Source: Candidatus Tectimicrobiota bacterium (GTDB taxonomy: Bacteria; JACPUC01). From it: a stretch of DNA of 64,000 bases. Positions 7,221 to 40,178 of the stretch are shown in pieces. The notes beneath the pieces were generated by a model, which made no database searches, was not told where the DNA came from, and saw only the letters and a list, made by a program, of their open reading frames with translations. Every line of letters starts with the position of its first letter. Within the stretch, counting starts at the first letter, position 1. The stretch spans positions 198,821 through 262,820 of the forward strand of contig JACPUC010000026.1 in NCBI GenBank assembly GCA_016192455.1, in the 5' to 3' direction. A program made the translations under genes and the position numbers.

Positions 7221-7226
7221 CCTTGG

Positions 7227-20752: not shown

Positions 20753-20950
20753 AGTGTGCTGTTTCACACATTCTATCGCAAGAATTTGCGAGGGAGCCTC
20801 GCCCCCTCGCGCACCCCGACTACGCGAGCTGCCGCGCAGCTCGCGAGGATTGGGGGTGTGGGGAAGCAAAGGTCTTGCGCAAAAACTCCCCCACCACATG
20901 GCCCGAAGAAGGCGTCCGATTAAGGAGGGAATTTGTGTGACGTAACACTA
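20753..20950 (-). mobile_element. MITE-like repeat, copy 3
   Basis: Near-identical inverted copy of 9421-9618. Includes the TAG stop of the SDR gene. Confidence 0.8.
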
Positions 20951-21763
20951 CGAAGCGAAGTGGCAGGAGACCCCGCCGTCGACGGGGAGCGCCACGCCGG
21001 TGATGAAGCGGGACTGGTCACTCACCAGGAAGAGGGCGGCCTCGCCGATGTCCTTCGGGTCGGCGAGATACCCCACGAGGATGCCGCGGAGCATGTGCTG
21101 GCGGGTTGCCTCGGGGTCGGGCGATTCATTGATGATCCGCTCGATGCCGCGCGTCGTGGCAAAGCTCGGGCAGATGCAGTTGACGCGGATGTTCTGGGCG
21201 CTGTACTCCACCGCCAGGGCGCGCGTGAGCTGCACCACGCCCCCCTTCGCGGCGCAGTAGGCCGCCTCGTTGGGGCGCCCGTTCAGCCCGGCCACCGAGG
21301 CGATGTTGAGGATCACCCCGCCCCCCTTCTCGAGCATGTGCGGGATGGTGTATTTCGACGTCAGGTAGATCGAGGTGAGGTTCACCGCGAGGGTGCGATC
21401 CCACAGCTCCTCGGGCAGGTCCGCCAGCTTGCCGGTGTAGCCGAAGGTGCCGCCGGCGTTGTTGACCAGGATGTCAAGCCGACCGAAGCGCGCGATGGTC
21501 TGCTTGATGACCTCCTGGACGCTCTGCGACACCGACACATCCATCTTCACGGCGAACGCCGCGACGCCGAGCGCCTCGGCCTGCTCGACGGTGCCCGCGC
21601 CGCGCTTCGATGAGATGTCGGCGATGACGACATTCGCCCCCGCCGCCGCGAGCTTCAGGGCGATTGCTTCGCCAAGCCCCGCCCCCCCCGCGGTGATGAG
21701 GGCACTCTTGCCTACCAGCAACTTCGCCGTCTGCGTCGCGGCCTGAGCTTCAGCCTGCGTCAT
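20948..21763 (-). CDS. classical short-chain dehydrogenase/reductase
   Basis: TAGGAGLG, NNAG, YCAAK and RVNCICP motifs. Appears to be the last gene of the hcr transcription unit. Confidence 0.9.
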   Translation of the reverse strand: MTQAEAQAATQTAKLLVGKSALITAGGAGLGEAIALKLAAAGANVVIADISSKRGAGTVEQAEALGVAAFAVKMDVSVSQSVQEVIKQTIARFGRLDILVNNAGGTFGYTGKLADLPEELWDRTLAVNLTSIYLTSKYTIPHMLEKGGGVILNIASVAGLNGRPNEAAYCAAKGGVVQLTRALAVEYSAQNIRVNCICPSFATTRGIERIINESPDPEATRQHMLRGILVGYLADPKDIGEAALFLVSDQSRFITGVALPVDGGVSCHFAS

Positions 21764-21863
21764 CAGCACTGCTCCTTCTCGCACCTCACCGCCGTGCGGC
21801 GCGTGGCAACGGCTGGCGGCTTATCGACCGCCAACCCCTCGCGCACTCGCAGAGACTTCCCTC

Positions 21864-22853
21864 TTAGACACCCGCCAGGGCGCGCAGGCGGCGCTCGAAG
21901 AGGATGCGCACCATGCGTTTCCGATGACCCGGCTCGGCATTCGTCGTCTTGGTCGGGTGAGCGGCTTTCCAGAGCGCCTGACCGGCGGCGCTGATGCTCT
22001 CCGGCGTCAGCGGCTCATTCTCCAGAATGCGCGCCGCCTCGTCAACGAGGAAGGGCCGCGCCTCCAAGCCTGTCAGGGCGATGCGGGCGCTGCGGCAGTG
22101 ACCGTTGGCGCCGGCGCGCACCAGCGACACGGCGATGCCGGCAAGGGGAAAGTCGATGGTGCCGCGGCGCCGGAACTTCTCGTAGAAACCACAGGCGCCG
22201 AGCTCCGGCGGCGGCACCTGGAACGAGGTGATGATCTCCGCCGGCTTCAGGGTAAATGGGTGCTTCCCGTCGTTCGTGTAGAGATCGGCCAGAGGAAACC
22301 GCCGGACGCCGCCCGGCCCCTCGACGGTCACCGTGGCGCCGAGGGCCAGGAGCGCCGGGGCCACGTCGCCCGAGAAGGCCGCCACGCACTCCTGCTTACC
22401 GTGCACGACGTAGCAGACCTCCCCATCCTCCTTGAAGCAGGGGCCGTAGCTCCGGCGCCAGAACTCGTCCTGGTTGTAGTAGCGGCAGCGGGTGTCGAGG
22501 CAGGCGTTGCCGCCCACCGTCCCCATGTTCTGGTGATGCCAGCTTCCGGCTTTCGAGGCCGCCTCCTGGAGCAGCGGGTAGTGCTGCGCCACCAGCGGCG
22601 AGGTCTTCAGCTCCTGCAGGGTGACGAGCGCCCCGATCCGCAGGCCGCCGGCATCGTAGGCCAGGCGGCGCAGCTCGGCCACGCGGCGCAGCCCCACGAG
22701 GTGGCGGGGGGTGAACAGGCCCTGCTTCATGGAGACGAGGAGGTCCGTCCCTCCGGCCATCAGCTTCGCCTCGGCGGGGTTCTCCTGCAGGACGGCGCAG
22801 GCCTCCTTCACGGAGCGCACCGCATGGTACCTGAACGTGGGCAAGAGTAGCAT
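21864..22853 (-). CDS. hcrB: 4-hydroxybenzoyl-CoA reductase beta-like FAD/[4Fe-4S] subunit
   Basis: AGGTDLL and GTVGGN, plus the HcrB-specific Cys insertion CLDTRCRYYNQ...C...C...C. Confidence 0.85.
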   Translation of the reverse strand: MLLLPTFRYHAVRSVKEACAVLQENPAEAKLMAGGTDLLVSMKQGLFTPRHLVGLRRVAELRRLAYDAGGLRIGALVTLQELKTSPLVAQHYPLLQEAASKAGSWHHQNMGTVGGNACLDTRCRYYNQDEFWRRSYGPCFKEDGEVCYVVHGKQECVAAFSGDVAPALLALGATVTVEGPGGVRRFPLADLYTNDGKHPFTLKPAEIITSFQVPPPELGACGFYEKFRRRGTIDFPLAGIAVSLVRAGANGHCRSARIALTGLEARPFLVDEAARILENEPLTPESISAAGQALWKAAHPTKTTNAEPGHRKRMVRILFERRLRALAGV

Positions 22854-25145: not shown

Positions 25146-25154
25146 GACATCTCC

Positions 25155-25649
25155 TCAAACCTGCACGGGCGCGCGCATCGCCGCGGCGGCTCTCTGCACG
25201 GCCTCGATGATGTGGACGTAGCCGGTGCAGCGACAGAGCACTGAACCAAGGGCCGCGCGGATGTCCTCGACGCCCGCCTCGGGGCAGCGCTCGAGCAGCG
25301 CCTTCGCCGACAGGATCATGCCCGCGGTGCAGTAGCCGCACTGCATCGCCCAGGTGTCGAGGAAGGCCGTCTGCAGCGGATGGAGCTGACCGTTCTCCGC
25401 CAGCCCTTCGATGGTCTCGACCCGCCGTCCGTCGCACTCCACGGCGAGGGTGAGGCAGGAGAGCACCGGCTGGCCGTCGAGGAGGAGGGTGCAGCAACCG
25501 CAGTCGCCCTTGTTGCACCCCATCTTGGCGCCAGTGAGGTGGAGGTCCTCACGAATGACATCAAGGAGGGTGCGATGGGTGGGCGTGGTGAGGTCATGGG
25601 GTTCCCCATTCACCTCCAGCTCAATCGTCTGGTAGCAAGGTTCCGTCAT
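25155..25649 (-). CDS. hcrC: 4-hydroxybenzoyl-CoA reductase gamma-like 2x[2Fe-2S] subunit
   Basis: GCNKGDCGCC, QCGYCTAG and LCRCTGY. Confidence 0.88.
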   Translation of the reverse strand: MTEPCYQTIELEVNGEPHDLTTPTHRTLLDVIREDLHLTGAKMGCNKGDCGCCTLLLDGQPVLSCLTLAVECDGRRVETIEGLAENGQLHPLQTAFLDTWAMQCGYCTAGMILSAKALLERCPEAGVEDIRAALGSVLCRCTGYVHIIEAVQRAAAAMRAPVQV

Positions 25650-25823
25650 TACCTTGTTCCCTTCTTAGCACATGGATCAACCGGGTCCGCTCTCGCCGCG
25701 GCAACCTGGCGGGGTCCCAGCTCCGCTTCTCTGAGGTGTTCCCCTGCTTCGCCCAAGGCGCCCAGGCGCAGGCGGGCGGGGTGCGCGCCAGCGCGGTTGC
25801 ACGCTGCTCCCGAGCCCTAGGGG

Positions 25824-26999
25824 CTACCCCGCCAGTAGCGCGCGAGCCACGATCAGGCGCTGGATTTCCGCCGAGCCGTCGTAGATGCGCATAATGCGCG
25901 TGTCGCGGTACATCCGCTCGACCAGGCTCGCCGCCGCGCCGTCGGCCTGGAGGCCGAGGATGCCGAAGAAGTCCACGGCGCGGTCGGCGACGCGGTTGAC
26001 CACCTCCGTGCCGAAGAACTTCGCCATCGAGGCCTCCGTCGAGCAGCGCTCGCCGCGGCCCATGCGCGCCGCCGTGGTGTAGAGGAGCAGCCGCAGGGCG
26101 TAGATCTCCGTCTCATTCGCGGCCAATAGCTCCGCGAGCCTGCCGCGCCGCCCCCGCACGCCGAAACCGGCGCCGTTCCCGGCCCGCTTCCCAGCCTGGG
26201 CGGCAGCGTACTCCCGGCAGCTCTCCTGCAGGCGGCCCGCCGCCCCCAGCCCGCCGGCCGCCATGCCAAGGCGCCCCTTGTCGAGGGCACGCATGGCGAC
26301 GCGGAACCCCTTGTTCACTTCGCCGATGACGTTGCGCTTCGGCACGCGGCAGTCGTGCAGGCGCAGCTCGCAGGTGGCCGCGCCGCGCAGCCCCATGAGG
26401 CGGTCGACCGGGCCGAGATCCAGACCCGGCGTCTGGCGCTCCACGAAGAACGCCGTCATGCCGCGGTTGCCGGCCGCCGGGTTCGTCTTCGCCAGGATGG
26501 TGTAGTAACTCGCGTGCGGCCCGTTCGACACCCAGATCTTTTGGCCGTTGAGCACGTAGGCATCGCCGTCGTCGACGGCCCGCGTTTGGATGGCGGCGGC
26601 ATCCGAGCCGGCATTCGGCTCGGTGAGGGCGAGGGAGGCAATGGCCTCGCCGCGCGCCAGCTTCGGCAGGTAGGCGCGCTTCAGCTCCTCGGAGCCTTCG
26701 TACACCAGGCCCATGGCGCCGATGCCGCTGTTTGTTGTGATGCGCGTGCGCAGGCAGAGGTTTGTGGTGGCGATCTCTTCAAGGACGAGGATCTCCGCCA
26801 CCAGCGGCAGCTCGAGGCCCCCATAGGCGGCGGGGATGCTCAATCCGAAGAGGCCCAGCTCGCGCATGCGCCGCAGGAGGTGCTCCGGGATAACCCCTTC
26901 CTCCTCGATCCGCTGTTCCAGCGGGCGCACCTCGCGGCGCACGAAGTCCCGCACCTGGTCACGCAGCGTTAACTCAGCGGCACTGAATCCAAAATGCAT
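25824..26999 (-). CDS. acyl-CoA dehydrogenase
   Basis: LALTEPNAGSDAA, NGQKIWVSNG, MGLRGAAT and IYDGSAEIQR. Confidence 0.92.
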   Translation of the reverse strand: MHFGFSAAELTLRDQVRDFVRREVRPLEQRIEEEGVIPEHLLRRMRELGLFGLSIPAAYGGLELPLVAEILVLEEIATTNLCLRTRITTNSGIGAMGLVYEGSEELKRAYLPKLARGEAIASLALTEPNAGSDAAAIQTRAVDDGDAYVLNGQKIWVSNGPHASYYTILAKTNPAAGNRGMTAFFVERQTPGLDLGPVDRLMGLRGAATCELRLHDCRVPKRNVIGEVNKGFRVAMRALDKGRLGMAAGGLGAAGRLQESCREYAAAQAGKRAGNGAGFGVRGRRGRLAELLAANETEIYALRLLLYTTAARMGRGERCSTEASMAKFFGTEVVNRVADRAVDFFGILGLQADGAAASLVERMYRDTRIMRIYDGSAEIQRLIVARALLAG

Positions 27000-27285: not shown

Positions 27286-27692
27286 GTTTTCCCCTTCCAG
27301 CCGGGAGCATATTAGCCACGCAGAGAGCTGTCATGGCGATGGCGCTAAGCGGCAGCGTGCTGCGCTCCACCGCTTACCGCGCCACCCGGCGAGTGGCGCG
27401 CGCCGTGCGCGAGGCAAATCGCCGCGGGAGATCAAACTCCTGGAGGTGAACGGTTGGCAACGGCCCCGCTTCGGGCCCGTAGAAGCCGTTGCCTCGCGTG
27501 CACCTTGAGAAGCCACCACGGTTGGGGGGAAAGGGTGGCAGGCGGGCCGGCGCGGCGGCGTTAACCGCCGGCGTCACAGCTTATCCCGCGCCTGATGGCT
27601 CCACACCCCCCTGACTACTCTCGGCCGACGGGCGCACCTGAGTGCGCAATTCGCCCCGCAATCGCCACGAAGCTAGCCAGGAGATTGAGAGG

Positions 27693-28202
27693 GTGACGAA
27701 TCCACTGGACCTGCTTACAGAACAGCATCAACACGGCTTGCGCGAGCTGGACCGCCTCGACGCCGCGCTCTCCAGAGTGCAGACGAGCGGCAACCTTGCG
27801 GCTGAGCTGGCGACGATCAGGCAGGCGGTCACGTTCCTTGATACGGAGGTGCGCCAGCATAACCAGATCGAGGAGGACCACCTCTTCCCCGTGCTTGAAG
27901 CCACCGCTCCCGGCGGCCCCATCGGGGTGATGCTGGATGAGCACCGTGAGCTGTGGGCCGCACTCGATGCGCTGCAGAACAGCCTCCGCAAACTGGCGGC
28001 GAGGAGCACCGATGAGGCGGCGCGCGATCTCCTGCTGCGCGAGGGGCTGCACATCTGCGACCTGCTGCGCAACCACATCGCCAAGGAGGAGAACATCCTC
28101 TTCCCCAGCGCCCGCGAATGCCTGACGCCGAGCCAGCTCGAGCGCATCTCCTGGGCCATGGAGGGGGAAGCCTCGGAGGAGTACAAGCGGCGCGACACGT
28201 GA
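27693..28202 (+). CDS. hemerythrin (HHE) domain protein
   Basis: EQHQH, RQHNQIEEDHLFP, DEHREL and NHIAKEENILFP. Confidence 0.88.
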   Translation: MTNPLDLLTEQHQHGLRELDRLDAALSRVQTSGNLAAELATIRQAVTFLDTEVRQHNQIEEDHLFPVLEATAPGGPIGVMLDEHRELWAALDALQNSLRKLAARSTDEAARDLLLREGLHICDLLRNHIAKEENILFPSARECLTPSQLERISWAMEGEASEEYKRRDT

Positions 28203-29044: not shown

Positions 29045-29740
29045 ATGCAACCGAATTGCGCAAGCTGTAAGTCGACCACCGACTGTCATTGGAGCTCATT
29101 GAACGACAAGCTCATCGAGGACCTGGTTCACCAGAGCAGCGTGCGCAGCTATGCCAAGAAGCAATACATCTTCCATGAATCGGATCCGGTGCATGGCTTG
29201 TACATCCTGTGCGAAGGCCTCGTGAAGCTCATCAAGACCACCGCCAACAGCCGCCAGGTCATCGTCAAGCTGGTATATCCCGGGGAACTTCTCGGGGGCC
29301 TCTTCTTCCTGAACGGCAACGACGCCTCCTTCTCCGCCCAGGCGGTGGAAGACTCCTCCATCTGCTTCACGCATCGCAGCTACATCGAGCAGGTACTGCT
29401 GCGCGACGCCAACCTCTCTCTCAACCTCCTCACCTACTTCAACGAACAACTCTGCAACAGCTTCCAGACCCTGTGCGAGTTTGCCGCCTTCGACGTGGAG
29501 CAGCGCCTCGCCGGCACCCTGCTGCGCTTTGCCGAGCACTACTCCGTGGAGACGCGGGACGGCTTGGCCTGTCATCTGCCGCTGCGGCGCGGCGAGCTGG
29601 CCGAGTTCCTCGGCACCACCGCCGAGACCACAGCGCGCACCCTCAGCAACTTGAAGCGGCAGCAGATCATCGCCCTGGAACGGCGCACCATCACCTTCCT
29701 GGATGTTGACCGCCTGCGGGCCATTGCCAAACGCTCCTGA
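29045..29740 (+). CDS. fnr: FNR-type Crp/Fnr transcriptional regulator
   Basis: N-terminal C-x2-C-x5-C (CASCKSTTDC) plus a central SSICF Cys, and HTH LGTTAETTART. Confidence 0.82.
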   Translation: MQPNCASCKSTTDCHWSSLNDKLIEDLVHQSSVRSYAKKQYIFHESDPVHGLYILCEGLVKLIKTTANSRQVIVKLVYPGELLGGLFFLNGNDASFSAQAVEDSSICFTHRSYIEQVLLRDANLSLNLLTYFNEQLCNSFQTLCEFAAFDVEQRLAGTLLRFAEHYSVETRDGLACHLPLRRGELAEFLGTTAETTARTLSNLKRQQIIALERRTITFLDVDRLRAIAKRS

Positions 29741-29889: not shown

Positions 29890-29903
29890 TTGATTTTCAT
29901 CAA
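29890..29903. promoter_or_regulatory. FNR box upstream of the bcr operon
   Basis: TTGAT-TTTC-ATCAA is a perfect consensus match. Confidence 0.85.
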
Positions 29904-30165: not shown

Positions 30166-31011
30166 GTGACGGGCGCGATCGACATCCTCTGCTACTTCTT
30201 CAGCCATGAAGCGATCCAGAAGTACTGGTACGACTGCGAGGAGCTCTACCGCGTGGTGCTCTGGTGGCAGATGCAGGATCGCGTGCAGGGACGCTCGCTC
30301 GACGAGTTCGTCGCCCTGCTGGACGAGGCGGGGGTGGAGAAGGTGCTCATCCCGGCCACGAAGATGATGTCCTACAAGACCAAGAAGATGCTATGGGACA
30401 TCAGCCCCGACGAGGTTCTCGCCGTCGTGCAGAGCAAGCCGGACCGCTTCGTCGGCATGGCGGGCTTCAACCCCTACAGCGGCATGGCCGGGGTGCAAGA
30501 AGTGGAGCATGCGGTGCGTACCCTCGGCTTCCGCGGCGTCCACCTCCACACCTATGGCTTCGGCCTCGAGCTGGACCACCGCAAGTACTACCCGCTCTAC
30601 GCCAAGTGCGTCGAGCTTGGCGTTCCCGTCGTCATGCAGGTGGGCCACTCCGCCGAGCACATGCCCAGCGCCCTGGGCCGGCCCATCCTGGTTGATACCA
30701 TCGCCCTCGATTTCCCCGATCTGAACATCGTGGGGGCCCACACCGGCTGGCCGTGGACCGACGAGATGATCGCCCTCGCCTGGAAGCACGAGAACGTCTA
30801 CATCGGCATCGACGCGCACCACCCCCGCTACCTCGATCCCTCCCTCCTCCGCTTCATGAAGTCGCGCGGCAGGACGAAGGTCCTGTGGGGAACGAACTAC
30901 CCGGTGGTGGCGCACGCCTCGGCCAACTACATGCGCGAACACCTGGGCCTCAGCCCAGAAGTGCAAGACCTGATCCTGCGCGAGAATGCGCGCAAGCTTT
31001 TCGGGTTGTAA
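30166..31011 (+). CDS. amidohydrolase_2 family protein (atypical motifs)
   Basis: YYPLYAKCVELGVPV, QVGH, GAHTGWPW and WGTNYP. No N-terminal HxH. Confidence 0.85.
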   Translation: MTGAIDILCYFFSHEAIQKYWYDCEELYRVVLWWQMQDRVQGRSLDEFVALLDEAGVEKVLIPATKMMSYKTKKMLWDISPDEVLAVVQSKPDRFVGMAGFNPYSGMAGVQEVEHAVRTLGFRGVHLHTYGFGLELDHRKYYPLYAKCVELGVPVVMQVGHSAEHMPSALGRPILVDTIALDFPDLNIVGAHTGWPWTDEMIALAWKHENVYIGIDAHHPRYLDPSLLRFMKSRGRTKVLWGTNYPVVAHASANYMREHLGLSPEVQDLILRENARKLFGL

Positions 31012-31066
31012 CGGTTTCGCACCGGCGGCTGCGCCCGCATGGCGCGCGGCGGAGCCGGAGGGAGGG

Positions 31067-32230
31067 GTGAGCGTGAGTCTGCAACAACACCTGCAACGCT
31101 GCCGCAAGGTGGTGTACGACATGAACTTCACCTACGTCGACGCCTGGAGGCAGCAGCACCCCCAGGGCAAGGTGGTGGGCTGTTTCCCCGTGTACATCCC
31201 GCGCGAGGTCATCCACGCCGCCGGCATGCTCCCCGTGGGCATCTACGGCGGCGGGCTGGAGATCGAGATCGACCGCGCCGACGCGCGCGTGCAGTCCTTC
31301 ATCTGCTCTATCAGCCGCAGCACCCTCGAGCTCGGCATGTCGCACTACCTGAAGAACTTCGACGCCATGTACTTCACCTCCGTGTGCGACGTGGCGCGCA
31401 ACCTCTCCGGCGTCTGGGAGCGCAATTTCCCCAGCGTCCTCGTGGAGTACATCCACTTCCCGCAGAACATGGAGTCGAAGAGCTCGGTGCCGTACTACAG
31501 CGGCGAGATGCGCGGTCTGTGCCAGAACCTCGAGCGCATCGGCAACGTCACCATCACCGACGAGCAGTTGCGCCACAGCATCCAGGTCTACAACGAGAAC
31601 CGGGCGCTGCATCGCCAGCTCACCACCTTCAAGCAAGAGAACCCCGGCAAGCTCGACGCCAGCGAGCTCTACCTCCTGCAGCGCGCCGGCGCCTGCCTGC
31701 CCGTTGAGGAGCACACCGCCATGTTGCGCGAGGTGCTCGACGAACTGCCGCGCCGCGAGGGCAAGCGCCGCGACCGCATCCGCGTGGTGCTGGAAGGGGC
31801 CTTCTGCGAACAACCGCCGCTCGAGCTCATCGAGATCATCGAAGAGGCCGGTTGCGACATCGTCGCCAGCGACTTTGCGCTCGGCCTCATGTGGTTCCTC
31901 GAGGATGTGCCGGTGCAGGGCAACCCCCTGGAGAACCTGGCGCGGAGCTACCTGACGCAGAGCGACTACAGCTCCGTGCGCCATTACGGACTGAAGCGCC
32001 GCGATTACAGCTTGGTCGAGAAGGTGCGCCGAGTGAAGGCCGACGGCGTGCTCTTCTGCATCGCCAAGTTCTGCGAACCGGCCCTCATCGACTACGTCAC
32101 CCACAAGAATACCCTGGAGCGCGAGGGCATCCCCCTCGTGAACTTCGAGTTCGAGGAGAAGATGGGGGTGTTCGAGAACATCCGCATGCAAGTTGAGACC
32201 TTCGCCGAGTCCATCTTGCTGTTTGCCTAG
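31067..32230 (+). CDS. bcrC: class I benzoyl-CoA reductase subunit C-like (2-hydroxyacyl-CoA dehydratase family)
   Basis: PVYIPREVIHAAGMLPVGIYGGG, QSFICSISRSTLELG, SVCDVARNLSG and KFCEPAL. Confidence 0.85.
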   Translation: MSVSLQQHLQRCRKVVYDMNFTYVDAWRQQHPQGKVVGCFPVYIPREVIHAAGMLPVGIYGGGLEIEIDRADARVQSFICSISRSTLELGMSHYLKNFDAMYFTSVCDVARNLSGVWERNFPSVLVEYIHFPQNMESKSSVPYYSGEMRGLCQNLERIGNVTITDEQLRHSIQVYNENRALHRQLTTFKQENPGKLDASELYLLQRAGACLPVEEHTAMLREVLDELPRREGKRRDRIRVVLEGAFCEQPPLELIEIIEEAGCDIVASDFALGLMWFLEDVPVQGNPLENLARSYLTQSDYSSVRHYGLKRRDYSLVEKVRRVKADGVLFCIAKFCEPALIDYVTHKNTLEREGIPLVNFEFEEKMGVFENIRMQVETFAESILLFA

Positions 32231-32240
32231 GGGGGAACGC

Positions 32241-33497
32241 ATGGAGCAGAAACCTACCTTAAAGTACAAGAACCTGGCGATGAACACCCAGCGCGACCTG
32301 CTCGCCACCTGGTACGGGAAGCTTGCCACGGCCGAGGAGACCAAGCTCCCCATCGCTTACATGCTGGTGCCCGGCAGCGTCAGCGAGCTGGTGCGCCTGA
32401 TGGGCTTCGAGATCGTCTTCCCGGAGATCAACGCGCTGCAGTGCGGCATGAAGAAGACCGCCGGCAAGATGATCTTGAAAGCCGAAGACCTCGGCTATTC
32501 CTCCGACGTCTGCGGCTACGTGAAGAACGAGGTGGGCCTCTTCCTCACGGACCGGGAGTCTCCGACCGGGAAACTGCCGGCGCCCGACCTCCTGGTCTGC
32601 AACTACGTGGGCTGCACCACCTTCGTGAAGTGGTTCGAAGCCCTCGCCTCCTACTACGAAGTGCCGCTCTTCATGCTCGACGCCCCCTACATCCGCGGCG
32701 ACGGCATCACCCTGCACCAGCGCGACTACTTCGTGCAGCAGTTGCGTGATCTGGCGGACCTCTGCGGCTCCATCTCCGGCGCCAAGTACGACGAAGACAA
32801 GCTGAAGGAGATGCTGCGCTACTCGAAGGAAGCCGAAGACTTGTGGGTGAAGATCCTGCACTCGGCGAAGCACGTCCCCACCCCCATCGACTCCTACTTC
32901 GAGGCCGTCTTCTTCATGTCGCCGGTCTTCCTCATGCGCGGCATGCCGGAGACCGTGGAGTTCTACAAGAACGCCTGGCTCGAGGTGGAGGAGCGCATGC
33001 AGCTCGGCATCGGCCCCCTGCCCGAGGAGAAAGTGCGCGCCGTCATTGAAGGCCCGCCCGCCTGGCCGCACTTCCGGGCTTTCTGGGACCTCTTCAAGAA
33101 GTGGGGCGTGGTGAGCGTCGCCTCGACCTACTCCAAGGTCGGCGGCCTCTTCGACCTGGGATTCCGGCATGATCCCGACCATCCGCTGGAGAGCATCGCG
33201 GAGTACTGCATGGGGTGCTACACGAACATCAGCCTGCCGAAACGGGCCAAGCTCCTGAAGCAGTACCTCGAGGAGTACTCCGCCGATTGCCTCGTCATTC
33301 ACTCCGTGAAGAGCTGTCGCTCCTTCTCCATGGGACAGGCCGACATGCGGGAGTACTTCATGCACGAAGTGAATGTGCCGACTCTGCAGATCGAGTCCGA
33401 CCTAGCCGATCCCCGTTACTTCCAGCGGGCTCAGCTCATGAACCGCATTGACGCGTTCTTCGAATCGCTCGAGCACCGCAGGCTGACGGCGGTGTAG
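32241..33497 (+). CDS. bcrB: class I benzoyl-CoA reductase subunit B-like
   Basis: [41 protein letters not shown] and [10 protein letters not shown]. Confidence 0.85.
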
Positions 33498-33558
33498 TTC
33501 GCGCCGCGCCGCGGCAGCGCCAGTTCACGAAGGCAAGAGGTGCGAGGGGGAAGATGCC

Positions 33559-34368
33559 ATGTACGTTGCCGGTGTAGACGTAGGGTCAACGCAAACCAAG
33601 GCAGTGATCCTGGATGGAGACAAGAAGATCGTGGGGCGCGGCCTCACGCACACGGGCGCCAACGTTATCGCCGCCGCCCAGCGCGCCTTCGACGAGGCGC
33701 GCCAGGAGGCGGGCGTGCAGCAGGATGAGGTGACCTATACCATCGGCACGGGGTATGGGCGCTACAAGGTCCCCTTCGGGGATACCCAGGTCACCGAGAT
33801 AAGCTGTCACGCCAGAGGCGCCTGCTACCTCTTCCCGGCAACGCGGACCGTCCTCGACATCGGCGGGCAGGACACCAAGGGCATCCGCACCAACGAGCTG
33901 GGAGAGGTGGTGGATTTCGTCATGAACGACAAGTGCGCGGCGGGCACCGGGCGCTTCCTGGCCGCCGCGGCCGAGGTCATGGGGTTGACGCTTGACCAGC
34001 TTGGCGAAACCTCGCTCCGCTCGCAGAAGGCCCTGCGCATCACCAACGTCTGCACGGTCTTCGTGGAGACCGAGATCATGGCGCAGCTCGCCCGCGGCCG
34101 CTCCGTGGAAGACATCCTGCACGGCGTGCACAACTCCATCTCCGGTCGCAGCGTCAGCCTGTTGCGCCGCGTCGGTCTCGAGCCGGAGATCACCATGACC
34201 GGCGGCGTGGCGCGCAACGTCGGCATGGTCTCGGCGCTGGAGGAGCGCATGCAGCTCAAAATCAACGTCAGCGCGGACTCCCACTACGTCGGCGCCCTGG
34301 GAGCCAGTATCTTCGCCTGGGAGCGCGAGTTCGCGCACGTCGCCGCCGGCGAGCGGAAAGGGGAGTAG
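33559..34368 (+). CDS. bcrA: benzoyl-CoA reductase ATPase subunit A-like (short, 269 aa)
   Basis: [44 protein letters not shown] and NVCTVF. Confidence 0.8.
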
Positions 34369-34370
34369 CG

Positions 34371-35177
34371 ATGGCCTTCACCGCAGGCATCGATATCGGC
34401 ACGCGGATGACCAAGACCCTCATCTACAATACCGACAGCAAGGAGATCGTTGCCGCTGTCATCGATCTCACCGGGCACAACCTGGGGGCCGCGGCGCAGC
34501 GCACCTTCGACGCGGCCCTGGCGAAGGCCGGCTTGAAGGCGGCGGACATCGGCTACGTCGCCACCACCGGCTACGGCCGCTACCAGGTGGAGTTCCGCAA
34601 CATCCAGATCACGGAGATTTCCTGCCACTCGAAGGGCGCCCTGAAGCTCTTCCCGAAGACGCAGAGCGTCCTCGACGTGGGAGCCCAGAACTCGCGCGCC
34701 ATGCGCGTGGCGCCGAATGGCCGGGTGACGAGCTTCCGCATGAACGAGAAGTGCGCCAGCGGCGCCGGGCGGTTCATCGAGCGCGTCGCCGGCGCGCTCG
34801 AGATTGAACTCGACCAGTTCGGCCCCATGTCGCTGAAAGCCGCCAACCCGCAGGAGATCAGCAGCGTCTGCGCCGTGCTCGCCGAGTCGGAGGTGATCAA
34901 CCACGTCACGGAAGGGCAGGAGATCGAGGATATCCTCATGGGCGCCAACAACGCGGTGAGCGACCGCATCGTAGCGCTGCTGCGGCAGGTCAAGGTGGAG
35001 CCGGAGGTGACCCTCACCGGCGGCGTGGCGAAGAATGCGGGCATGGTGAAGGCGCTCGAGAACCGCCTCGAGCTGTCCCTGAATGTCTCTGAGCTCTCGG
35101 AGTACGCGGGTGCTCTGGGAGCCTGTGTCTTCGCCAGCGAACGTCTGGCCAAGATGGGACAACGGGTGGCGGCCTGA
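34371..35177 (+). CDS. bcrD: benzoyl-CoA reductase ATPase subunit D-like
   Basis: AGIDIG, TTGYGR, MNEKCASGAGRF and ISSVCAVLAESEVIN. Confidence 0.82.
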   Translation: MAFTAGIDIGTRMTKTLIYNTDSKEIVAAVIDLTGHNLGAAAQRTFDAALAKAGLKAADIGYVATTGYGRYQVEFRNIQITEISCHSKGALKLFPKTQSVLDVGAQNSRAMRVAPNGRVTSFRMNEKCASGAGRFIERVAGALEIELDQFGPMSLKAANPQEISSVCAVLAESEVINHVTEGQEIEDILMGANNAVSDRIVALLRQVKVEPEVTLTGGVAKNAGMVKALENRLELSLNVSELSEYAGALGACVFASERLAKMGQRVAA

Positions 35178-35398
35178 GGTGGCGATGCCGCTCGCCTCTA
35201 GCCGCTGGCTGTCACCCGTTGGCAGCCGGGGAAGGCGGCGCGGCACGGCGGCGGATGAAGGCGGTTCGGAGCCCGGGCGGGGCGCACCAGCCCCTCCCTG
35301 GGTGCCGCGAGCGCCGGTCCGGCGACCGGACGGCGCTCGCGCCCTACGGCCTTGGGCGCAACGCCGATACTGCCGCCGGGCCAGCGGAGAATGGCGCC

Positions 35399-36328
35399 AT
35401 GAAGACGCCCGTCATCGACGTCCACCTGCACGCCTCGTCGATCTCCGGCTGGGGACGGCAGTGGCCCTTCGTGGAGTCATTTGCCGCCACCAGCGGCTTC
35501 TACGAGACCGTCGACGCCAACGGGGTCATGAAACCGGAGCTGGTGGAGGCCCTGCTGCGGCGCTGCGGCATTGATTACGCCCTCCTCCTGCCGGAGCTCA
35601 GCCCCCTCACCACGTACTACGTCGAGAATGAGTGGGTCTTCGAGTTCTGCAAGCACAGCACGCGGTTCCTGCCCTGCGCCAACATCAACCCGCACCTCGA
35701 GCACGACCTGGGGGGCCTGGTGCGCCGCTACATCGCCGAGCATGGTCTGCGGGCCATCAAGCTGGCGCCCACCTACCAGCATTTCTACCCGAACGACTCC
35801 CGCCTCTACCCGCTTTACGCCGTGGCCGAGGAGTGCGGCCTGCCGGTCCACATCCACACCGGCACCTCGATCTTCCGGCAGGCCAAGATCAAGTACGGCT
35901 ATCCCCTCCTCCTCGACGACATCGCCGTGGACTTCCCGCGCCTGAAGCTCGTGGCCGTGCACAGCGGCCGACGCTTCTGGTACGATGAGGCGTTCTTCCT
36001 TGGCGAGCAGCACGAGAACGTCTACCTGGAGATCGCCGGCCTGCCGCCCAAGAAGCTGCCGGAGTACTTCCCCAAGTTCAAAACGCTGACCCACAAGTTC
36101 ATCTTCGGCTCCGACTGGCCGGCGATGCCGAGCCTCGAGGGGAACATCGCCCAGGTGCGGGCCCTGCCGATCCCACCGGAGGATCAGGACGCTATCCTCG
36201 GCGGCACGGCGGCGCGCCTGCTCGGCATCGGCACGGAAACCTTCACCGACCAGGACGAGAGGCCGCGCCGGCAGTCCCACGGGGAGTCCGCGGTAGGCGG
36301 GCGCAGCGCAGGAACCACCTCATCCTGA
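35399..36328 (+). CDS. amidohydrolase_2 family protein
   Basis: IDVHLH, IKLAPTYQHF, VHIHTG, VAVHSG and FGSDWP. Confidence 0.88.
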   Translation: MKTPVIDVHLHASSISGWGRQWPFVESFAATSGFYETVDANGVMKPELVEALLRRCGIDYALLLPELSPLTTYYVENEWVFEFCKHSTRFLPCANINPHLEHDLGGLVRRYIAEHGLRAIKLAPTYQHFYPNDSRLYPLYAVAEECGLPVHIHTGTSIFRQAKIKYGYPLLLDDIAVDFPRLKLVAVHSGRRFWYDEAFFLGEQHENVYLEIAGLPPKKLPEYFPKFKTLTHKFIFGSDWPAMPSLEGNIAQVRALPIPPEDQDAILGGTAARLLGIGTETFTDQDERPRRQSHGESAVGGRSAGTTSS

Positions 36329-36485
36329 AGGCAGGCCGAGGCTCTTCCCATCTCCGGGCATGTCGCCGCGAAACGCAGGGTGCGACGGCAGGGCGGCGTC
36401 GGGCGTCGGCGCGCCGGCGGCGTGGCTCGATGCCGGCGCAGCTCCTTCCCCTCCACGGCAGGTAACCACGAGAAGGAAGCAACCT

Positions 36486-37238
36486 ATGGACGTCGCTGAC
36501 AAGGTCTCGATCATCACCGCGGCAGCCTCCGGGATCGGCAAGGCGACGGCAAGGCGCTTCGCCGAGCTTGGCGCTCGTGTCATCCTGGTGGACATTAACG
36601 AGGGCGCCTTGACGGCGGCGGCCAAGGAGCTCGCCGAGGCCGGCTATGCGGCGCAGCCCGAGGCGTGCGACATCACCAACCAGGAGGCGGTGCAGGCGCT
36701 GGTCCGCCGCGTGCTCGAACAGCGCCAGCGCATCGACGTGCTGGTGAACGCGGTCGGCTGGGGGAATATCGAACCGTTCCTGGACGGCACCCTGGCGTAC
36801 TGGCAGAAGCTCATCCAGCTCAACCTGATGGGCACTCTCATCATGTCGCACGCCGTGCTGCCGAGCATGCTGGCGCGGCAGAGCGGCAGCATCGTCAACC
36901 TCGCCTCCGATGCCGGGCGCGTCGGCAGCCTGGGCGAAACGGTCTATGCCGCCGCCAAGGGAGGGGTGATCGCCTTCACGAAATCCCTGGCGCGCGAGGT
37001 CTCCCGCCACGGCGTCCTGGTGAACTGCATCTCCCCCGGCCCCACGGACACCCCGCTGCTGCGCGAGCATGCCGGCACCGGCAGTGTCATCGAGAAGATG
37101 GTGAAGGCCATCCCCATGCGCCGCATCGCCCAGCCGGAGGAGCTGGCCAACGCCATCGTCTTCATGGCCTCGCGGGAGAATACGTACATCACCGGGCAAG
37201 TGCTGAGCGTCAGCGGCGGCCTCACGATGTCCGGCTAA
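36486..37238 (+). CDS. SDR, BadH-like (2-hydroxycyclohexanecarboxyl-CoA dehydrogenase-like)
   Basis: NAVGW..EPF, ASDAGRVGSLGETVYAAAKGG and CISPGPTDTPL resemble BadH. Confidence 0.75.
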   Translation: MDVADKVSIITAAASGIGKATARRFAELGARVILVDINEGALTAAAKELAEAGYAAQPEACDITNQEAVQALVRRVLEQRQRIDVLVNAVGWGNIEPFLDGTLAYWQKLIQLNLMGTLIMSHAVLPSMLARQSGSIVNLASDAGRVGSLGETVYAAAKGGVIAFTKSLAREVSRHGVLVNCISPGPTDTPLLREHAGTGSVIEKMVKAIPMRRIAQPEELANAIVFMASRENTYITGQVLSVSGGLTMSG

Positions 37239-37331
37239 CGCCGTCCCGGCCTGCCGCCGCGGGCATGCCGGCGCCGGCGCTCCGCCCGCAGCGCTCCCCC
37301 ATCCGCTGCCGTTGACGTGGGGACTGGAACG

Positions 37332-37904
37332 ATGCAGAAGCTCCCCGAAGGCTACCTGCAGCATGATCACCAGGCGATCATGCGGATGCTCACGCAGGTT
37401 GAAGGGGCATTGCAGCAGTTGGCCGCGACGGGCACGCTGCCGAACGCCTCGCTGCACGCCCTGGTGCGCAGGCTCGATGACGAGGTTGAGCGCCATTTCA
37501 TGAAAGAGGAACTGGTGCTGGGGCCCGTGTTGAGCCAGGTGGAGCCGGACGAGCGCGCGGCGCTGAGCGAGATCCTGCAGGACCACGAACGCCTGCGGCA
37601 AGAGATGGGCGCCTTCCGGGCCGCGGTGGAGCTGCACGAGGAGGGACACCTGCGCCCGAAGTCGACGGCGCAGTCGAAACTCATCCTGCGCGGCCTCGAC
37701 CTGGTGCGCAGCCTCGTGCAGCATATGCAGCGCGAGGAGAGCAGCTCCTTCCTCGATGCCGAGCGCCAGCTCAGCAGCGAACAGCGCCTGGCGGTGGCGC
37801 AGCAGCTCCGCGAGGCCGCCGTCTGGGAAGACCTCGCCGCGCCCCCGGAGCTGAACGCCCCTCCGCACGGCGGCAGTTCAGGGTCGTCCCACGAGGCGCC
37901 TTGA
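37332..37904 (+). CDS. hemerythrin (HHE) domain protein
   Basis: QHDHQ, ERHFMKEELVL, QDHERL and QHMQREE. Confidence 0.8.
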   Translation: MQKLPEGYLQHDHQAIMRMLTQVEGALQQLAATGTLPNASLHALVRRLDDEVERHFMKEELVLGPVLSQVEPDERAALSEILQDHERLRQEMGAFRAAVELHEEGHLRPKSTAQSKLILRGLDLVRSLVQHMQREESSSFLDAERQLSSEQRLAVAQQLREAAVWEDLAAPPELNAPPHGGSSGSSHEAP

Positions 37905-39152: not shown

Positions 39153-40178
39153 TCAGTTCGCGCCCACGAACGATTTCCCGTAGAAGCGCCGGGCGTTCTC
39201 CCCGAGGATGGCTCGCTTCGCAGAGTCGCTCAGCTCCTTGCGCTCGAGGATCGGCGCGGTGCAGTCAGGGTACGTCATATCCCAGTGCGGGTAATCCGAA
39301 GCGAAGAGAATCGCCTGCTCCCCCAGGTTCTCCACCGCGAACGGCATGGTCTCCTCTTCCGGCTCGCAAGAGAAGTAGATGCGTCCCCCCTTGACGTGCT
39401 CGCTCGGCATCACCTTCAGGTTCGGGGCCTCGACGGCGCGCTTCTCGTACTCCTCGTCCATGCGATCCATCCAGTAGGGCACCCAGCCGGCCCCCGCTTC
39501 CAGGAAGCCGAGTCGCAGGGTGGAGAAGCGATCGCAGATGCCGCTGAAGATCACCGCGGTAAGCTGCCGCATGATGGGCAGCGGATGGCCGCAGGTGTGC
39601 ACACAGATGAAGGCGTCGAACATCTCCGTCCCCGGCTCATCGCCGCCGCTGGCATGGATGGCCAGGGGCACGTTCAAGCGCTCTGCCTCCTCGTAAAGCG
39701 GGTAGAACTCCGAATTGCCGAAGCTTTTGGCGTGCCCATGCGCCGGCAGCATCCCCCCCACCAGCCCATGCTTCGTGACAGCGCGGTTGAGTTCGGCCGT
39801 GGCCAGCTCGCCGTTGGGCGGCAGGAGGGCCACCGCCGAAAGCCGCCCGCCCGCCTGGGCGCAGTGATCGGCAACCCAGTCGTTGTAAGCGCGGCAGAGC
39901 GCTGTGGCAAACTCCGGCTCGCGAATCTTGCCGATGAAGAGCCCAAGCGTCGGGTAGAGAACGGAGTGCTGGATCTTCGAGAGGTCCATATCGGCGAGCC
40001 GCTCCCGCACATCGGTGCCGGGCCTGCCCAGGGTGCCGCCCATTCTGCGGTCATACGACTCCATGGGGTAGAGCGGCGAGGAGCGCCGGCGGTAAGGCTC
40101 ATCCAGGTAGCCACGATAACAGACCTCCTCCAGGTCCATCGCATGTCCATCCGCGTCAATGATCGCGAACTCTCCCAT
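39153..40178 (-). CDS. amidohydrolase_2 family protein (decarboxylase/hydratase-like)
   Basis: IDADGH, CRAYNDW, LAIHASG, FLEAGAGW and FASDYPHWD. Confidence 0.88.
   Translation of the reverse strand: MGEFAIIDADGHAMDLEEVCYRGYLDEPYRRRSSPLYPMESYDRRMGGTLGRPGTDVRERLADMDLSKIQHSVLYPTLGLFIGKIREPEFATALCRAYNDWVADHCAQAGGRLSAVALLPPNGELATAELNRAVTKHGLVGGMLPAHGHAKSFGNSEFYPLYEEAERLNVPLAIHASGGDEPGTEMFDAFICVHTCGHPLPIMRQLTAVIFSGICDRFSTLRLGFLEAGAGWVPYWMDRMDEEYEKRAVEAPNLKVMPSEHVKGGRIYFSCEPEEETMPFAVENLGEQAILFASDYPHWDMTYPDCTAPILERKELSDSAKRAILGENARRFYGKSFVGAN

Follow-up and report, generated by a model that had tools for sequence, protein, structure and literature searches.

The window, a stretch of 64,000 nucleotides from a Candidatus Tectimicrobiota bacterium, contains a block of eight genes on the plus strand in the order amh1-bcrC-bcrB-bcrA-bcrD-amh2-SDR-hemerythrin. 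The first gene, amh1 (30166-31011), encodes an amidohydrolase of 281 amino acids (Amidohydro_2, Pfam PF04909, 135 bits). It is followed by the genes for a BcrC-like subunit of the HGD-D family (31067-32230), a BcrB-like active-site subunit (32241-33497), a compact BcrA-like ATPase of 269 residues (33559-34368; PF01869) and a BcrD-like ATPase of 268 residues (34371-35177). Downstream, amh2 (35399-36328; 309 residues, PF04909) encodes an Amidohydro_2 protein of a second subfamily and precedes the gene for a BadH-like SDR (36486-37238; 250 residues), while a gene for a hemerythrin-domain protein (37317-37904; PF01814) closes the block. The reading frames of bcrC, bcrB, amh2 and the SDR gene are open from 30986, 32193, 35219 and 36360, respectively. 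Based on the ribosome-binding site GGAGGGAGG upstream and on the lengths of homologues, bcrC is likely to start with a GTG at 31067 or 31073; for amh2 and the SDR gene, the ATG codons at 35399 and 36486 are the probable starts, and the database form of bcrB begins at 32241. Since the starts of bcrC, amh2 and the SDR gene lie downstream of those of the longest reading frames, amh1 and bcrC, which seem to overlap, are more likely separated by 55-61 bp. A GC-rich spacer of 221 nt (35178-35398, plus strand) sets bcrD and amh2 apart and is highly structured (RNA fold of -142.5 kcal/mol, z = -4.0 versus shuffles). Due to this spacer, a single transcript can only be inferred; the eight genes may be co-transcribed as one operon or as an operon pair.

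A perfect FNR/CRP-type box (TTGATTTTCATCAA, 29890-29903) precedes amh1 by 263 bp and is embedded in an AT-rich spacer. Two FNR sites were observed in the window, compared to 0.02 expected by chance, and a gene for a Crp/Fnr-family regulator (29045-29740) lies shortly before the box. Thus, the gene order, the common orientation and the FNR box described in the original prediction are all present. A second hemerythrin gene was detected at 27642-28202. In an Acidobacteriota locus (L107), in which an amh1 homologue, an SDR gene, mbdNOQP-like genes and a hemerythrin gene are directly adjacent, hemerythrin follows the reductase genes as it does in the window. On the minus strand, a divergent unit (20948-26999) comprises the gene for an acyl-CoA dehydrogenase, genes for an hcrC-, hcrA- and hcrB-like Mo enzyme (TIGR03193/4/5 as best or near-best matches, below cut-off) and an SDR gene. 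The window also encodes an amine oxidase, hydantoinase B, an M20 peptidase and RidA, which are nitrogen-related, and a set of CoA-transferase, thiolase and B12-mutase.

By their sequences, the bcr genes encode a genuine four-subunit class I benzoyl-CoA reductase, which belongs to a widespread Thauera-related clade with two compact ATPases. The same four subunits in the same C-B-A-D order are known from BcrCBAD of Thauera aromatica and BadDEFG of Rhodopseudomonas palustris, and the best models for the window proteins are TIGR02263 (367 bits, cut-off 421), TIGR02260 (402 bits, cut-off 487), TIGR02259 (aligned only over profile positions 229-432) and TIGR02261 (172 bits). Two different ATPases with cluster cysteines and FNR-type anaerobic control are further common properties. 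By contrast, none of the four window subunits reaches its NCBIfam equivalog cut-off, the A subunit of 269 residues lacks the N-terminal half of BcrA (the extension of about 170 amino acids in the Thauera protein), and the cluster is devoid of ferredoxin, dch, had and oah genes; a CoA ligase gene was not found in it either. BcrA and BcrD are paralogues (48% identity) that have kept their cluster cysteines (KCAAGTG and VCTVFVETE in BcrA, KCASGAG and VCAVLAESE in BcrD). The solved structure nearest to BcrB is MbdONQP, the 3-methylbenzoyl-CoA reductase of Azoarcus/Aromatoleum sp. CIB (PDB 9G87; 216 bits with MbdO). Compared with the BzdO structure, BcrB retains the catalytic Glu, the Tyr that binds the thioester and all three cysteines of the cluster: the Glu of FPEIN, the C-G-Y motif and the cysteine of K-S-C-R correspond to Glu65, Cys95/Tyr97 and Cys380 of BzdO. 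The BcrC-like subunit, which matches the double_cubane model with 136 bits, is expected to carry a double-cubane cluster.

HGD-D and BcrAD_BadFG domains are common to the whole 2-hydroxyacyl-CoA dehydratase/double-cubane superfamily, the HadB and HadC models match at 203-244 bits and HadB in the PDB at 163 bits. The four-gene set might therefore encode another ATP-dependent ketyl-radical enzyme acting on a non-aromatic CoA ester. This is very improbable, however, as the Bcr models score far above the Had models, two distinct ATPase genes are present versus one homodimeric activator, orthologues lie inside dch/had/oah/KGOR clusters, and the genome possesses a true oah gene. Reductase relatives with 62-63% identity, found in Bacteroidota and others, are encoded in clusters arranged as oah-SDR-DUF2889-dch-bcrCBAD-had-ACAD-KGOR-Mo enzyme; no amidohydrolase gene was found near the closest relatives on long contigs. 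The scores of the relatives with the Bcr models are almost those of the window proteins (C, 369 vs 367; B, 440 vs 402; A, 219 vs 217; D, 173 vs 172), and on this comparison, scoring below the cut-offs characterises the clade as a whole. Because relatives in complete dch/had/oah/KGOR clusters share these scores, benzoyl-CoA would be the simplest reading of the substrate. When the Mo enzyme and FAD subunit of one such cluster (L024) are compared with this genome, the divergent unit at 20948-26999 gives the best matches (40-41% identity), and by these matches it is the orthologue of the Mo-enzyme set in the relatives' reductase clusters.

The original prediction had also considered a reductase for a non-benzoate aryl-CoA. 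A substituted or heteroaromatic substrate (2-aminobenzoyl-, hydroxybenzoyl- or methylbenzoyl-CoA) would leave the amidohydrolases to treat the substituent, as deaminases, decarboxylases or hydrolases of an enamine/enol product. The sub-cutoff scores of all four subunits, the location of the closest named amh1 relatives in a 3-methylbenzoate-type (mbd) cluster of Aromatoleum, and the nitrogen-related genes of the window point in this direction, as does the CoA-transferase/thiolase/B12-mutase set, which we take to resemble the anaerobic indoleacetate route to 2-aminobenzoyl-CoA. We nevertheless judge this reading unlikely. The scores are equalled by relatives in complete benzoyl-CoA clusters, so that they lend it no support; the nitrogen-related genes belong to separate transcription units 8-17 kb from the cluster, and conservation next to the reductase was seen in none of the relatives examined; and members of both amidohydrolase families are found with plain benzoyl-CoA-type clusters, too.

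For both amidohydrolases, the best match in sequence and structure is BB4693 of Bordetella bronchiseptica (PDB 3IRS/3K4W), a TIM-barrel protein. The amh1 product is a TIM-barrel of the BB4693 subfamily (best PDB match 3IRS), and its AlphaFold model (pLDDT 92.6) is nearest to 3IRS with a TM of 0.79; LigJ, a hydratase in Amidohydro_2, also ranks among its structural neighbours. For the amh2 model (pLDDT 82), the top neighbours are 3IRS, LigW and LigJ. Common motifs of BB4693 are (S/A)H(G/T)(N/G)WPW and GT(A/N)YP without the strand-8 Asp, but the identity to the window proteins is only 24-25% and BB4693 is uncharacterised, so it does not help to deduce a mechanism. In the family alignment, the metal site of amh1 is degenerate (IDILCY for IDxHxH, GTNYP for GTDYP); amh1 is very strongly conserved although the canonical ligands are lost. 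The amh2 product has intact metal ligands of the HxH/H/H/D type (IDVHLH, HTGT, VHSGR, GSDWP), and D7, H9, H11, H153, H188 and D239 are invariant in its family.

The linkage of amidohydrolases and reductases is conserved in several phyla. Reductase genes occur within 10 kb of an amh1 homologue in nine of the 80 best genome loci. Besides the Acidobacteriota locus L107, direct adjacency was found in a Binatia MAG (bcrCBAD, BadH-like SDR, amh1), in two loci with the order mbdNOQP-like genes, amh1, dch and had (L104/L105), and in Methylomirabilota, Fraserbacteria and Aromatoleum mbd-type clusters. In the mbd-type cluster of Aromatoleum buckelii, a homologue with 60% identity to amh1 immediately follows the reductase genes, and thiolase, ECH, 3HCDH, had, oah, dch and ferredoxin genes come next, none of which accompanies the reductase in the window; moreover, the Mbd-type reductase represents a different branch with 33-35% identity to the window reductase. 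The mbd operon of strain CIB has been reported to contain "some genes of unknown function" (PMC4424350). For amh2, reductase ATPase genes are present in 11 of 40 homologue loci of at least 8 kb in metagenomes. A had-amh2 pair recurs in four clusters with class I reductases (L178, L188, L199, L209) and once in a bam-like cluster of class II (L124), and a relative with 74-78% identity retains the amh2-SDR pair. In Anaerolineae, a class II (bam-like) cluster encodes, behind oah-had, an amidohydrolase with 52.5% identity to the amh2 product. On these sequence comparisons, amh1 and amh2 are members of different subfamilies and conserved partners of reductases across several phyla rather than a local replacement, and both families recur beside aryl-CoA reductases of every type. 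Most members are nonetheless located away from reductases (one amh2-type gene sits among histidine and haem genes; relatives of amh1 in aerobic Actinobacteria lie beside thiolase, ECH and 3HCDH genes), suggesting that their chemistry is not reductase-specific.

An association of this kind is not new, since the amidohydrolase-superfamily proteins ThnN and BamU have already been named in thn and bam clusters, where they have no assigned function; expressed ThnN was insoluble (PMC12016498, PMC13689101). ThnN (N47_E41360/NPH_5899) is a TIM-barrel like amh1. Its gene is part of the thn operon, which serves the anaerobic degradation of naphthalene and also encodes an aryl-CoA reductase of class I type, a thiolase, a 3HCDH and an SDR; the thn system differs in that it acts on a bicyclic CoA ester. 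From its 43% identity to the amidohydrolase of a thn-like locus of the TRIP culture and from gene context, amh1 is probably ThnN-type. The gene context similarly suggests that the amh2 family probably equals BamU, the amidohydrolase-family protein of the benzoate-degradation (bam) cluster of Geobacter metallireducens, although the partner of BamU is a class II reductase and that of amh2 a class I enzyme.

A Pfam scan of 38 window genes revealed no ECH or Zn-ADH domain, whole-genome profile searches gave no oah, dch or had match within the window (C31:198821-262820), and no small CxxCxxCxxxC ferredoxin ORF was detected in it, the only such motifs being those of an Fe-S subunit encoded near 59 kb. 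The reported lack of crotonase, Zn-alcohol dehydrogenase and ferredoxin genes in the window was thus confirmed. Outside the window, the genome-wide search recovered a true oah (contig C18, 555 bits) but, in a genome that is 88% complete, no equivalog of had (best match 117 bits), dch (149 bits, in a PaaA/BoxB-like cluster), badK or badI (best BadI-like match 182 bits, C9). With that degree of completeness and an oah gene only 2.4 kb from where its contig stops, the missing sequence could contain dch and had. In addition, in-cluster Dch proteins of non-proteobacterial lineages score only about 169 bits, so a generic crotonase like the 149-bit one on C7 could be Dch. A complete dch/had/oah set was not found elsewhere in the genome, and the linkage is conserved.

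It is possible, if rather doubtful, that the cluster encodes a third version of the lower benzoyl-CoA pathway through non-orthologous replacement, in which amh2 would hydrate the dienoyl-CoA for Dch, the BadH-like SDR would oxidise the alcohol for Had, and a ThnN-type amh1 would open the ring by C-C hydrolysis for Oah/BadI. Besides the missing had and dch equivalogs, there are five loci (L102, L107, L169, L173, L176) in which SDR and amidohydrolase genes accompany the reductase and neither had nor dch lies within 10 kb; in three of them (L169, L173, L176), an oah-bcrCBAD block is divergent from SDR-amh2. Amidohydro_2 includes the hydratase LigJ, and in the literature the ring-opening step of naphthalene degradation has ThnN as its best candidate, a role as ring-opening hydrolase having been proposed for it (PMC12016498). 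Neither oah nor badI equivalogs are present in any of the five other genomes with amh1 beside a reductase (G061-G065), which keeps a ring-opening role for amh1 alive. By contrast, a true oah was found in seven of 12 reductase genomes that lack amh1 altogether (11 Acidobacteriota, one Bacteroidota), in searches that included positive controls; the difference (0/5 vs 7/12, hypergeometric P ~0.04) is to be read with the different reductase sub-clades of the two groups and uncontrolled MAG incompleteness in mind. On the other hand, this genome encodes a bona fide Oah, amh1 lacks the ligands that activate water in canonical amidohydrolases, and the C7 crotonase is a candidate Dch. Furthermore, in most related loci the two families are found alongside the enzymes they would replace, usually dch and had and at times also oah: amh1 is accompanied by dch and had in L104/L105, and by oah as well in the Aromatoleum and Paramagnetospirillum clusters, and amh2 is paired with had in L199 and has dch, had and oah-like genes around it in L178, L188 and L209. 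The view that amidohydrolases stand in place of dch/had/oah was hence too strong, while the idea that they open the ring is sustained by the ThnN proposal and weakened by the lost ligands of amh1 and the presence of Oah.

We regard it as moderately probable that the block is an FNR-controlled unit for dearomatisation of benzoyl-CoA and the first steps on the ring product, with the SDR at the Had step, the amidohydrolases as pathway partners and Oah acting in trans. BcrCBAD would dearomatise benzoyl-CoA in an ATP-driven reaction under FNR control. The amh2 product would most likely be a metalloenzyme that hydrates or hydrolyses a cyclic dienoyl-, enoyl- or beta-oxoacyl-CoA formed after ring reduction, and amh1 may act on, or bind, a CoA-ester intermediate of the same pathway. 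As the crotonase-type ring hydrolase is encoded elsewhere, on C18, the pathway is probably completed in trans. The cluster is thus a useful lead on what reductase-associated amidohydrolases do in anaerobic aromatic-acid breakdown. The alcohol-dehydrogenase step is probably performed by the BadH-like SDR, which would replace the Zn-dependent Had. Its best NCBIfam match is BadH (TIGR03206, 274 bits), the 2-hydroxycyclohexanecarboxyl-CoA dehydrogenase of R. palustris, but the score is below the cut-off of 431 and the SDR is no equivalog. It shares 78% identity with the SDR encoded after amh2 on the contig of a relative (L126), and 44% with the SDR encoded between bcrD and the amidohydrolase in the Binatia MAG, which likewise has BadH as its best NCBIfam match (296 bits).

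Gene calling guided by GC3 and profile searches confirmed eight co-oriented genes on the plus strand, in the order originally predicted. The block begins with amh1 (30166-31011), a gene for an Amidohydro_2 protein, followed by genes for BcrC-, BcrB-, BcrA- and BcrD-like proteins in that order. Then come a second Amidohydro_2 gene, amh2 (likely ATG start at 35399, 309 aa), a gene for a short-chain dehydrogenase (SDR; likely ATG start at 36486, 250 aa) whose best family match is BadH and, at the end, a hemerythrin gene (37317-37904). The whole array stands behind a perfect FNR box (TTGATTTTCATCAA, 29890-29903). Two FNR box sites were observed in the window, compared to 0.02 expected, and a Crp/Fnr-family regulator gene together with another hemerythrin gene is located just upstream of the box. 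A crotonase or Zn-dependent alcohol dehydrogenase gene was found neither among the 38 window genes scanned nor, for oah, dch and had, by the genome-wide searches, which gave zero matches within the window range. A small ferredoxin ORF was likewise absent from the window, so that the predicted lack of all three gene types was confirmed.

The starts of three genes had to be revised: besides amh2 and the SDR gene, with the starts given above, this concerns bcrC, which most likely begins with a GTG at 31067 or 31073, preceded by GGAGGGAGG. Due to this strong ribosome-binding site and the two GTG codons, a 26-nt overlap of amh1 and bcrC, which would have implied translational coupling, was dropped. 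The spacer between bcrD and amh2 (35178-35398, 221 nt) is GC-rich and folds with -142.5 kcal/mol (z = -4.0 against shuffles); within it, a stretch at about 35308-35342 forms a near-perfect hairpin of 15 bp without a U tract. This spacer could be an element for mRNA processing or stability, or an internal attenuator. Terminator-like sites did not exceed the shuffle background. We infer that all eight genes may be transcribed as a single unit.

In bacteria, the central pathway of aromatic degradation without oxygen consists of benzoyl-CoA reductase and its follow-up enzymes. According to Pfam and NCBIfam, the enzyme encoded in the window is composed of two HGD-D-type Fe-S subunits and two different BcrAD/BadFG ATPases. 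The ATPase genes bcrA and bcrD are paralogues (48% identical), BcrA being a compact ATPase of 269 aa, and each product possesses the two cysteines expected to ligate a bridging [4Fe-4S] cluster (KCAAGTG and VCTVFVETE in BcrA, KCASGAG and VCAVLAESE in BcrD). In the active site of the reference subunit BzdO, the aqua-[4Fe-4S] cluster is held by Cys95, Cys128 and Cys380, Glu65 is catalytic and Tyr97 is bonded to the thioester oxygen (PMC11971306). Alignment to BzdO and to a second reference subunit, MbdO, revealed that BcrB retains the three cluster cysteines, the catalytic glutamate and the thioester tyrosine (FPEIN, DVCGY, VGC, KSCR). The position of BzdO His131 is occupied by phenylalanine in both the window BcrB and MbdO, demonstrating that this histidine is not universal.

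All four subunits match the Thauera-type Bcr models best, yet they remain below the NCBIfam equivalog cut-offs (C 367/421, B 402/487, A 217/578 and D 172/313 bits). The original prediction had allowed for a reductase acting on a non-benzoate aryl-CoA, and such a shortfall might be taken to point to an altered substrate. However, almost identical scores below the cut-offs were obtained with relatives from complete dch/had/oah clusters, so that the shortfall marks a clade rather than an altered function. BcrB homologues with 57-63% identity number in the thousands; the MAGs that encode them belong to Bacteroidota, Acidobacteriota, Planctomycetota and other groups. Where long contigs are available, the relatives exhibit the order oah, SDR, DUF2889, dch, bcrC, bcrB, bcrA, bcrD, had, acyl-CoA dehydrogenase, 2-oxoacid:ferredoxin oxidoreductase and a Mo enzyme similar to 4-hydroxybenzoyl-CoA reductase. 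The best matches of this Mo enzyme and its FAD subunit in the genome of the source organism (G000) are found in the window itself, in a divergent hcrCAB-like unit. Because of the conserved sites, the complete clusters of the relatives, the shared scores and the match of the Mo enzyme, we regard the window enzyme, from its sequence, as a true benzoyl-CoA reductase of class I that belongs to the compact-ATPase clade and would not be retuned for another substrate. A non-benzoate aryl-CoA as substrate is thus improbable, and we give hardly any credence to the notion that the four genes do not encode an arene reductase at all. An indoleacetate (iaa-like) cluster feeding 2-aminobenzoyl-CoA was initially suggested by genes for hydantoinase B, Mo hydroxylases, a family III CoA-transferase, a thiolase and a B12 mutase in the window. 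It was abandoned as main reading since the bcr-adjacent Mo enzyme resembles 4-hydroxybenzoyl-CoA reductase and has an orthologue in the reductase clusters of the relatives, while the remaining candidate genes show no conserved linkage to the reductase.

The oah (bamA) gene is the standard marker gene for anaerobic aromatic degradation. The G000 assembly (4.46 Mb, 31 contigs, 88% complete) contains one true oah equivalog (555 bits, cut-off 464) at C18:96155-97261, 2.4 kb from the contig end. This gene belongs to a locus (C18:92899-97261, L009) far from the reductase, where the only true oah of bamA type in G000 is accompanied by NfnAB-like genes for an NADPH-dependent glutamate-synthase-type subunit and a sulfide-dehydrogenase-like FAD/NAD subunit. 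In G000, no equivalog was detected for had (best 117 bits, cut-off 339), dch (149 versus 292 bits) or badI (182 versus 468 bits, a crotonase on C9), and the SDR itself, with 274 bits, is below the BadH cut-off of 431. Equivalogs thus make up neither the Thauera-type lower pathway (Dch, Had, Oah) nor the BadH and BadI steps of the Rhodopseudomonas type (BadK, BadH, BadI) in G000, and the complete dch/had/oah set that would have counted against the original prediction was not found in the assembly, only its oah. Since the Dch encoded within clusters of the Bacteroidota type reaches only 169 bits with the dch model, a generic crotonase may conceivably serve as Dch in G000. By contrast, Had really seems to be absent, as the corresponding Had of the Bacteroidota type scores 267 bits, well above any match in G000.

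Several loci of G000 deserve mention in this context. The best Dch-like crotonase shares its locus (C7:304435-309286, L133) with another crotonase, a PaaA/PaaC (BoxB-like) protein and a flavoprotein resembling rubredoxin reductase. At C9:37025-39905 (L134), directly next to an acyl-CoA dehydrogenase and a second Hcr-like set, a BadI/MenB-like crotonase is encoded (182 bits for BadI, 159 for Oah, below all cut-offs) which might act as an alternative ring hydrolase. A second reductase was not found in G000, only an orphan bcrB paralogue (66% identity) lacking bcrC, bcrA and bcrD. This orphan (C22:121708-126793, L010/L011) is positioned between a KGOR-like 2-oxoacid:ferredoxin oxidoreductase and a 3-hydroxyacyl-CoA dehydrogenase (3HCDH), followed by a B12-binding protein and Mo hydroxylases, and the order oxidoreductase, bcrB-like gene and 3HCDH is repeated on an unrelated Logan contig (L023). 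This KGOR on C22 is a candidate for the electron-donor system that the reductase otherwise lacks. G000 also harbors well over 25 paralogues of the large subunit of xanthine-dehydrogenase-family Mo enzymes, including several Hcr-like three-gene sets (C30, C9, C22), which is an unusual expansion.

Both amidohydrolases belong to PF04909, but they are only 32% identical and constitute two distinct subfamilies with different active sites. The amh2 family possesses all canonical Amidohydro_2 ligands known from ACMSD, LigW and LigJ (HxH, histidines of strands 5 and 6, aspartate of strand 8), its invariant residues being D7, H9, H11, H153, H188 and D239. The amh1 family, with a mean column identity of 71% across phyla, does not: its metal site is degenerate, the HxH motif reading IDFHCN in most members and IDILCY in the window protein, and the aspartate of strand 8 is replaced by asparagine (GTNYP). 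Invariant in this family are C9, H128, H161, E164 and H192, while the metal-ligand positions vary among members. For both proteins the best PDB match is 3IRS, an uncharacterised protein which shares a WPW motif with amh1 and likewise misses the aspartate of strand 8. AlphaFold yielded confident TIM barrels (pLDDT 92.6 for amh1 and 82.4 for amh2) whose structural neighbours are 3IRS and then aromatic-acid decarboxylases and the hydratase LigJ. The fold searches with either amidohydrolase, in which 3IRS was followed by generic decarboxylases and hydratases alone, did not favour any one function.

[quoted passage not shown] The same review lists BamU of the Geobacter metallireducens bam cluster as a ThnN homologue of unknown function (PMC12016498). 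A paper of September 2026 describes ThnN as insoluble and therefore inaccessible to assay (PMC13689101). In the phenanthrene culture TRIP, two such genes are located beside reductase-like and beta-oxidation genes, and identities of 48-60% to ThnN are given for the TRIP amidohydrolases (PMC6849830). An amidohydrolase from a thn-like locus of TRIP is 43% identical to amh1. From relatives, not from the named sequences themselves, we infer that amh1 is of the ThnN type and amh2 of the BamU type. Like ThnN and BamU, amh1 and amh2 are TIM barrels of the amidohydrolase superfamily whose genes lie within an aryl-CoA reductase or ring-degradation cluster. Hence, the association of amidohydrolase and reductase is already known, though unexplained (PMC12016498).

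Nine of the best 80 genome loci of amh1 have reductase genes within 10 kb, and layouts drawn as tblastn hit maps revealed that the two are directly adjacent in many lineages. In Binatia (L102), bcrCBAD is followed by a BadH-like SDR, 44% identical to the window SDR, and amh1. Acidobacteriota have amh1, SDR, mbdNOQP-like genes and hemerythrin (L107), Acidobacteria and Blastocatellia mbdNOQP-like genes, amh1, dch and had (L104/L105), Methylomirabilota reductase genes and then amh1 (L045), and Fraserbacteria amh1, dch and then distant reductase-like genes (L106). Aromatoleum (L027, L038, L039) combines mbdONQP-type genes with amh1, thiolase, ECH, 3HCDH, had, oah, dch and ferredoxin, Paramagnetospirillum (L028) a CoA-transferase with amh1, thiolase, ECH, 3HCDH, had, oah and dch. 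In the Methylomirabilota MAG, about 4.3 kb of other sequence (about 3400-7700) splits bcrCB from bcrAD, and the contig carries a second amh1 paralogue beside a Dch-like crotonase (G061:C62:8241-10705). Most remaining amh1 relatives, including those of aerobic Actinobacteria, occur with thiolase, ECH and 3HCDH and without reductase.

For amh2, reductase ATPase genes were present at 11/40 metagenome loci of at least 8 kb. A had-amh2 pair recurs in mbd-like class I clusters (L178, L188, L199, L209), and oah-had-amh2 was encountered in a class II bam-like cluster of Anaerolineae. An alternative layout without had or dch shows oah-bcrCBAD divergent from SDR-amh2 (L169, L173, L176). Two short Logan contigs from one sequencing run encode bcrB (77% identity) as well as amh2 (74%) and SDR (78%), so that the amh2-SDR pair is kept in the nearest known relative. 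One amh2 context (P0276) lies outside aromatic metabolism, and no amidohydrolase was located near the closest reductase relatives on long contigs. Taken together, both subfamilies recur with every reductase type, and the window is the most compact arrangement found, the reductase being placed between one member of each subfamily, plus a BadH-like SDR. The linkage to bcr is therefore conserved across phyla as anticipated, but in most related loci the amidohydrolases stand alongside dch and had, sometimes also oah, and not in their place. A search of the species collection for relatives of G000 returned 60 genomes, all related at the level of the domain alone and no two of one family, so that a close relative seems to be missing there.

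In the genomes reached through the compared loci, oah, had, dch and badI were scored. The five genomes from outside the Proteobacteria in which amh1 adjoins the reductase (G061-G065) contain neither an oah nor a badI equivalog, and just two of the five have Had-like genes. Among 401 sampled genomes of the Acidobacteriota, 11 have a BzdO equivalog; six of these possess a true oah, three more a weak oah-like gene, and none an amh1-family gene, although this search matched in 6/6 positive controls. Including the Bacteroidota genome G069, a true oah is thus present in 0/5 amh1-linked genomes versus 7/12 reductase genomes without amh1 (hypergeometric P about 0.04, with different reductase sub-clades and MAG completeness uncontrolled). 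Where amh1 lies next to the reductase, oah tends to be missing from the genome, a distribution which fits amh1 standing in for Oah and agrees with a full replacement, in which the amidohydrolases and the SDR take over the Dch, Had and Oah steps. The evidence is weak, since the two genome groups differ in reductase sub-clade, MAG completeness is uncontrolled and three genomes carry both genes, G000 as well as Aromatoleum and Paramagnetospirillum, the latter two within one cluster. The true oah of these amh1 carriers speaks against a full replacement, which we consider rather unlikely.

The same distribution bears on a third lower benzoyl-CoA pathway in uncultured Binatia, Methylomirabilota, Acidobacteriota, Fraserbacteria and G000, in which the amidohydrolase fold would replace the crotonase fold. 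There, the strongly conserved ThnN-type protein, devoid of the canonical metal ligands, would act as a ring-opening C-C hydrolase of a new kind in place of Oah or BadI, and the metal-bearing BamU-type protein and the BadH-like SDR would replace Dch and Had. If true, this would settle what ThnN and BamU do, and with the ring-opening reading surveys based on bamA/oah would undercount anaerobic aromatic degradation. The conserved linkage and the lack of had and dch equivalogs speak for the undescribed pathway originally proposed; the true oah and the co-occurrence of dch and had in relatives speak against it, and we regard such a third pathway as doubtful.

The best-supported reading, towards which we lean moderately, is an FNR-controlled bcr operon of the compact-ATPase clade, with the SDR as Had, two amidohydrolase partners and Oah encoded elsewhere. 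According to this reading, the BadH-like SDR probably carries out the Had step, and Oah would be supplied from another place in G000. The proteins amh1 and amh2 would be members of two conserved, uncharacterised families of aryl-CoA-reductase partners: to judge from its ligands, amh2 probably converts a ring-derived CoA ester as a metal-dependent hydratase or hydrolase, while amh1, an atypical member, may have some role on such an ester. The window thus offers a compact, comparative handle on ThnN/BamU function, with concrete proteins and substrates to test.

Genes for LptF/G and SurA in the window indicate that the source organism is Gram-negative. A third Amidohydro_2 gene, amh3 (39153-40178, minus strand), represents yet another subfamily with about eight paralogues in G000; its nearest solved relatives are not hydrolases but amidohydrolase-fold diiron oxygenases (SfbO 8SM6-9, AibH 6M1W/8FUL, PtmU3 6OMP). 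Hemerythrin-domain genes at 27642-28202 and 37317-37904 bracket the reductase region, and a hemerythrin gene (17393-17839) follows the reductase genes in the Acidobacteriota locus L107 as well. This suggests that hemerythrin recurs as a partner of the oxygen-labile reductase, either sensing oxygen or NO or protecting the enzyme.
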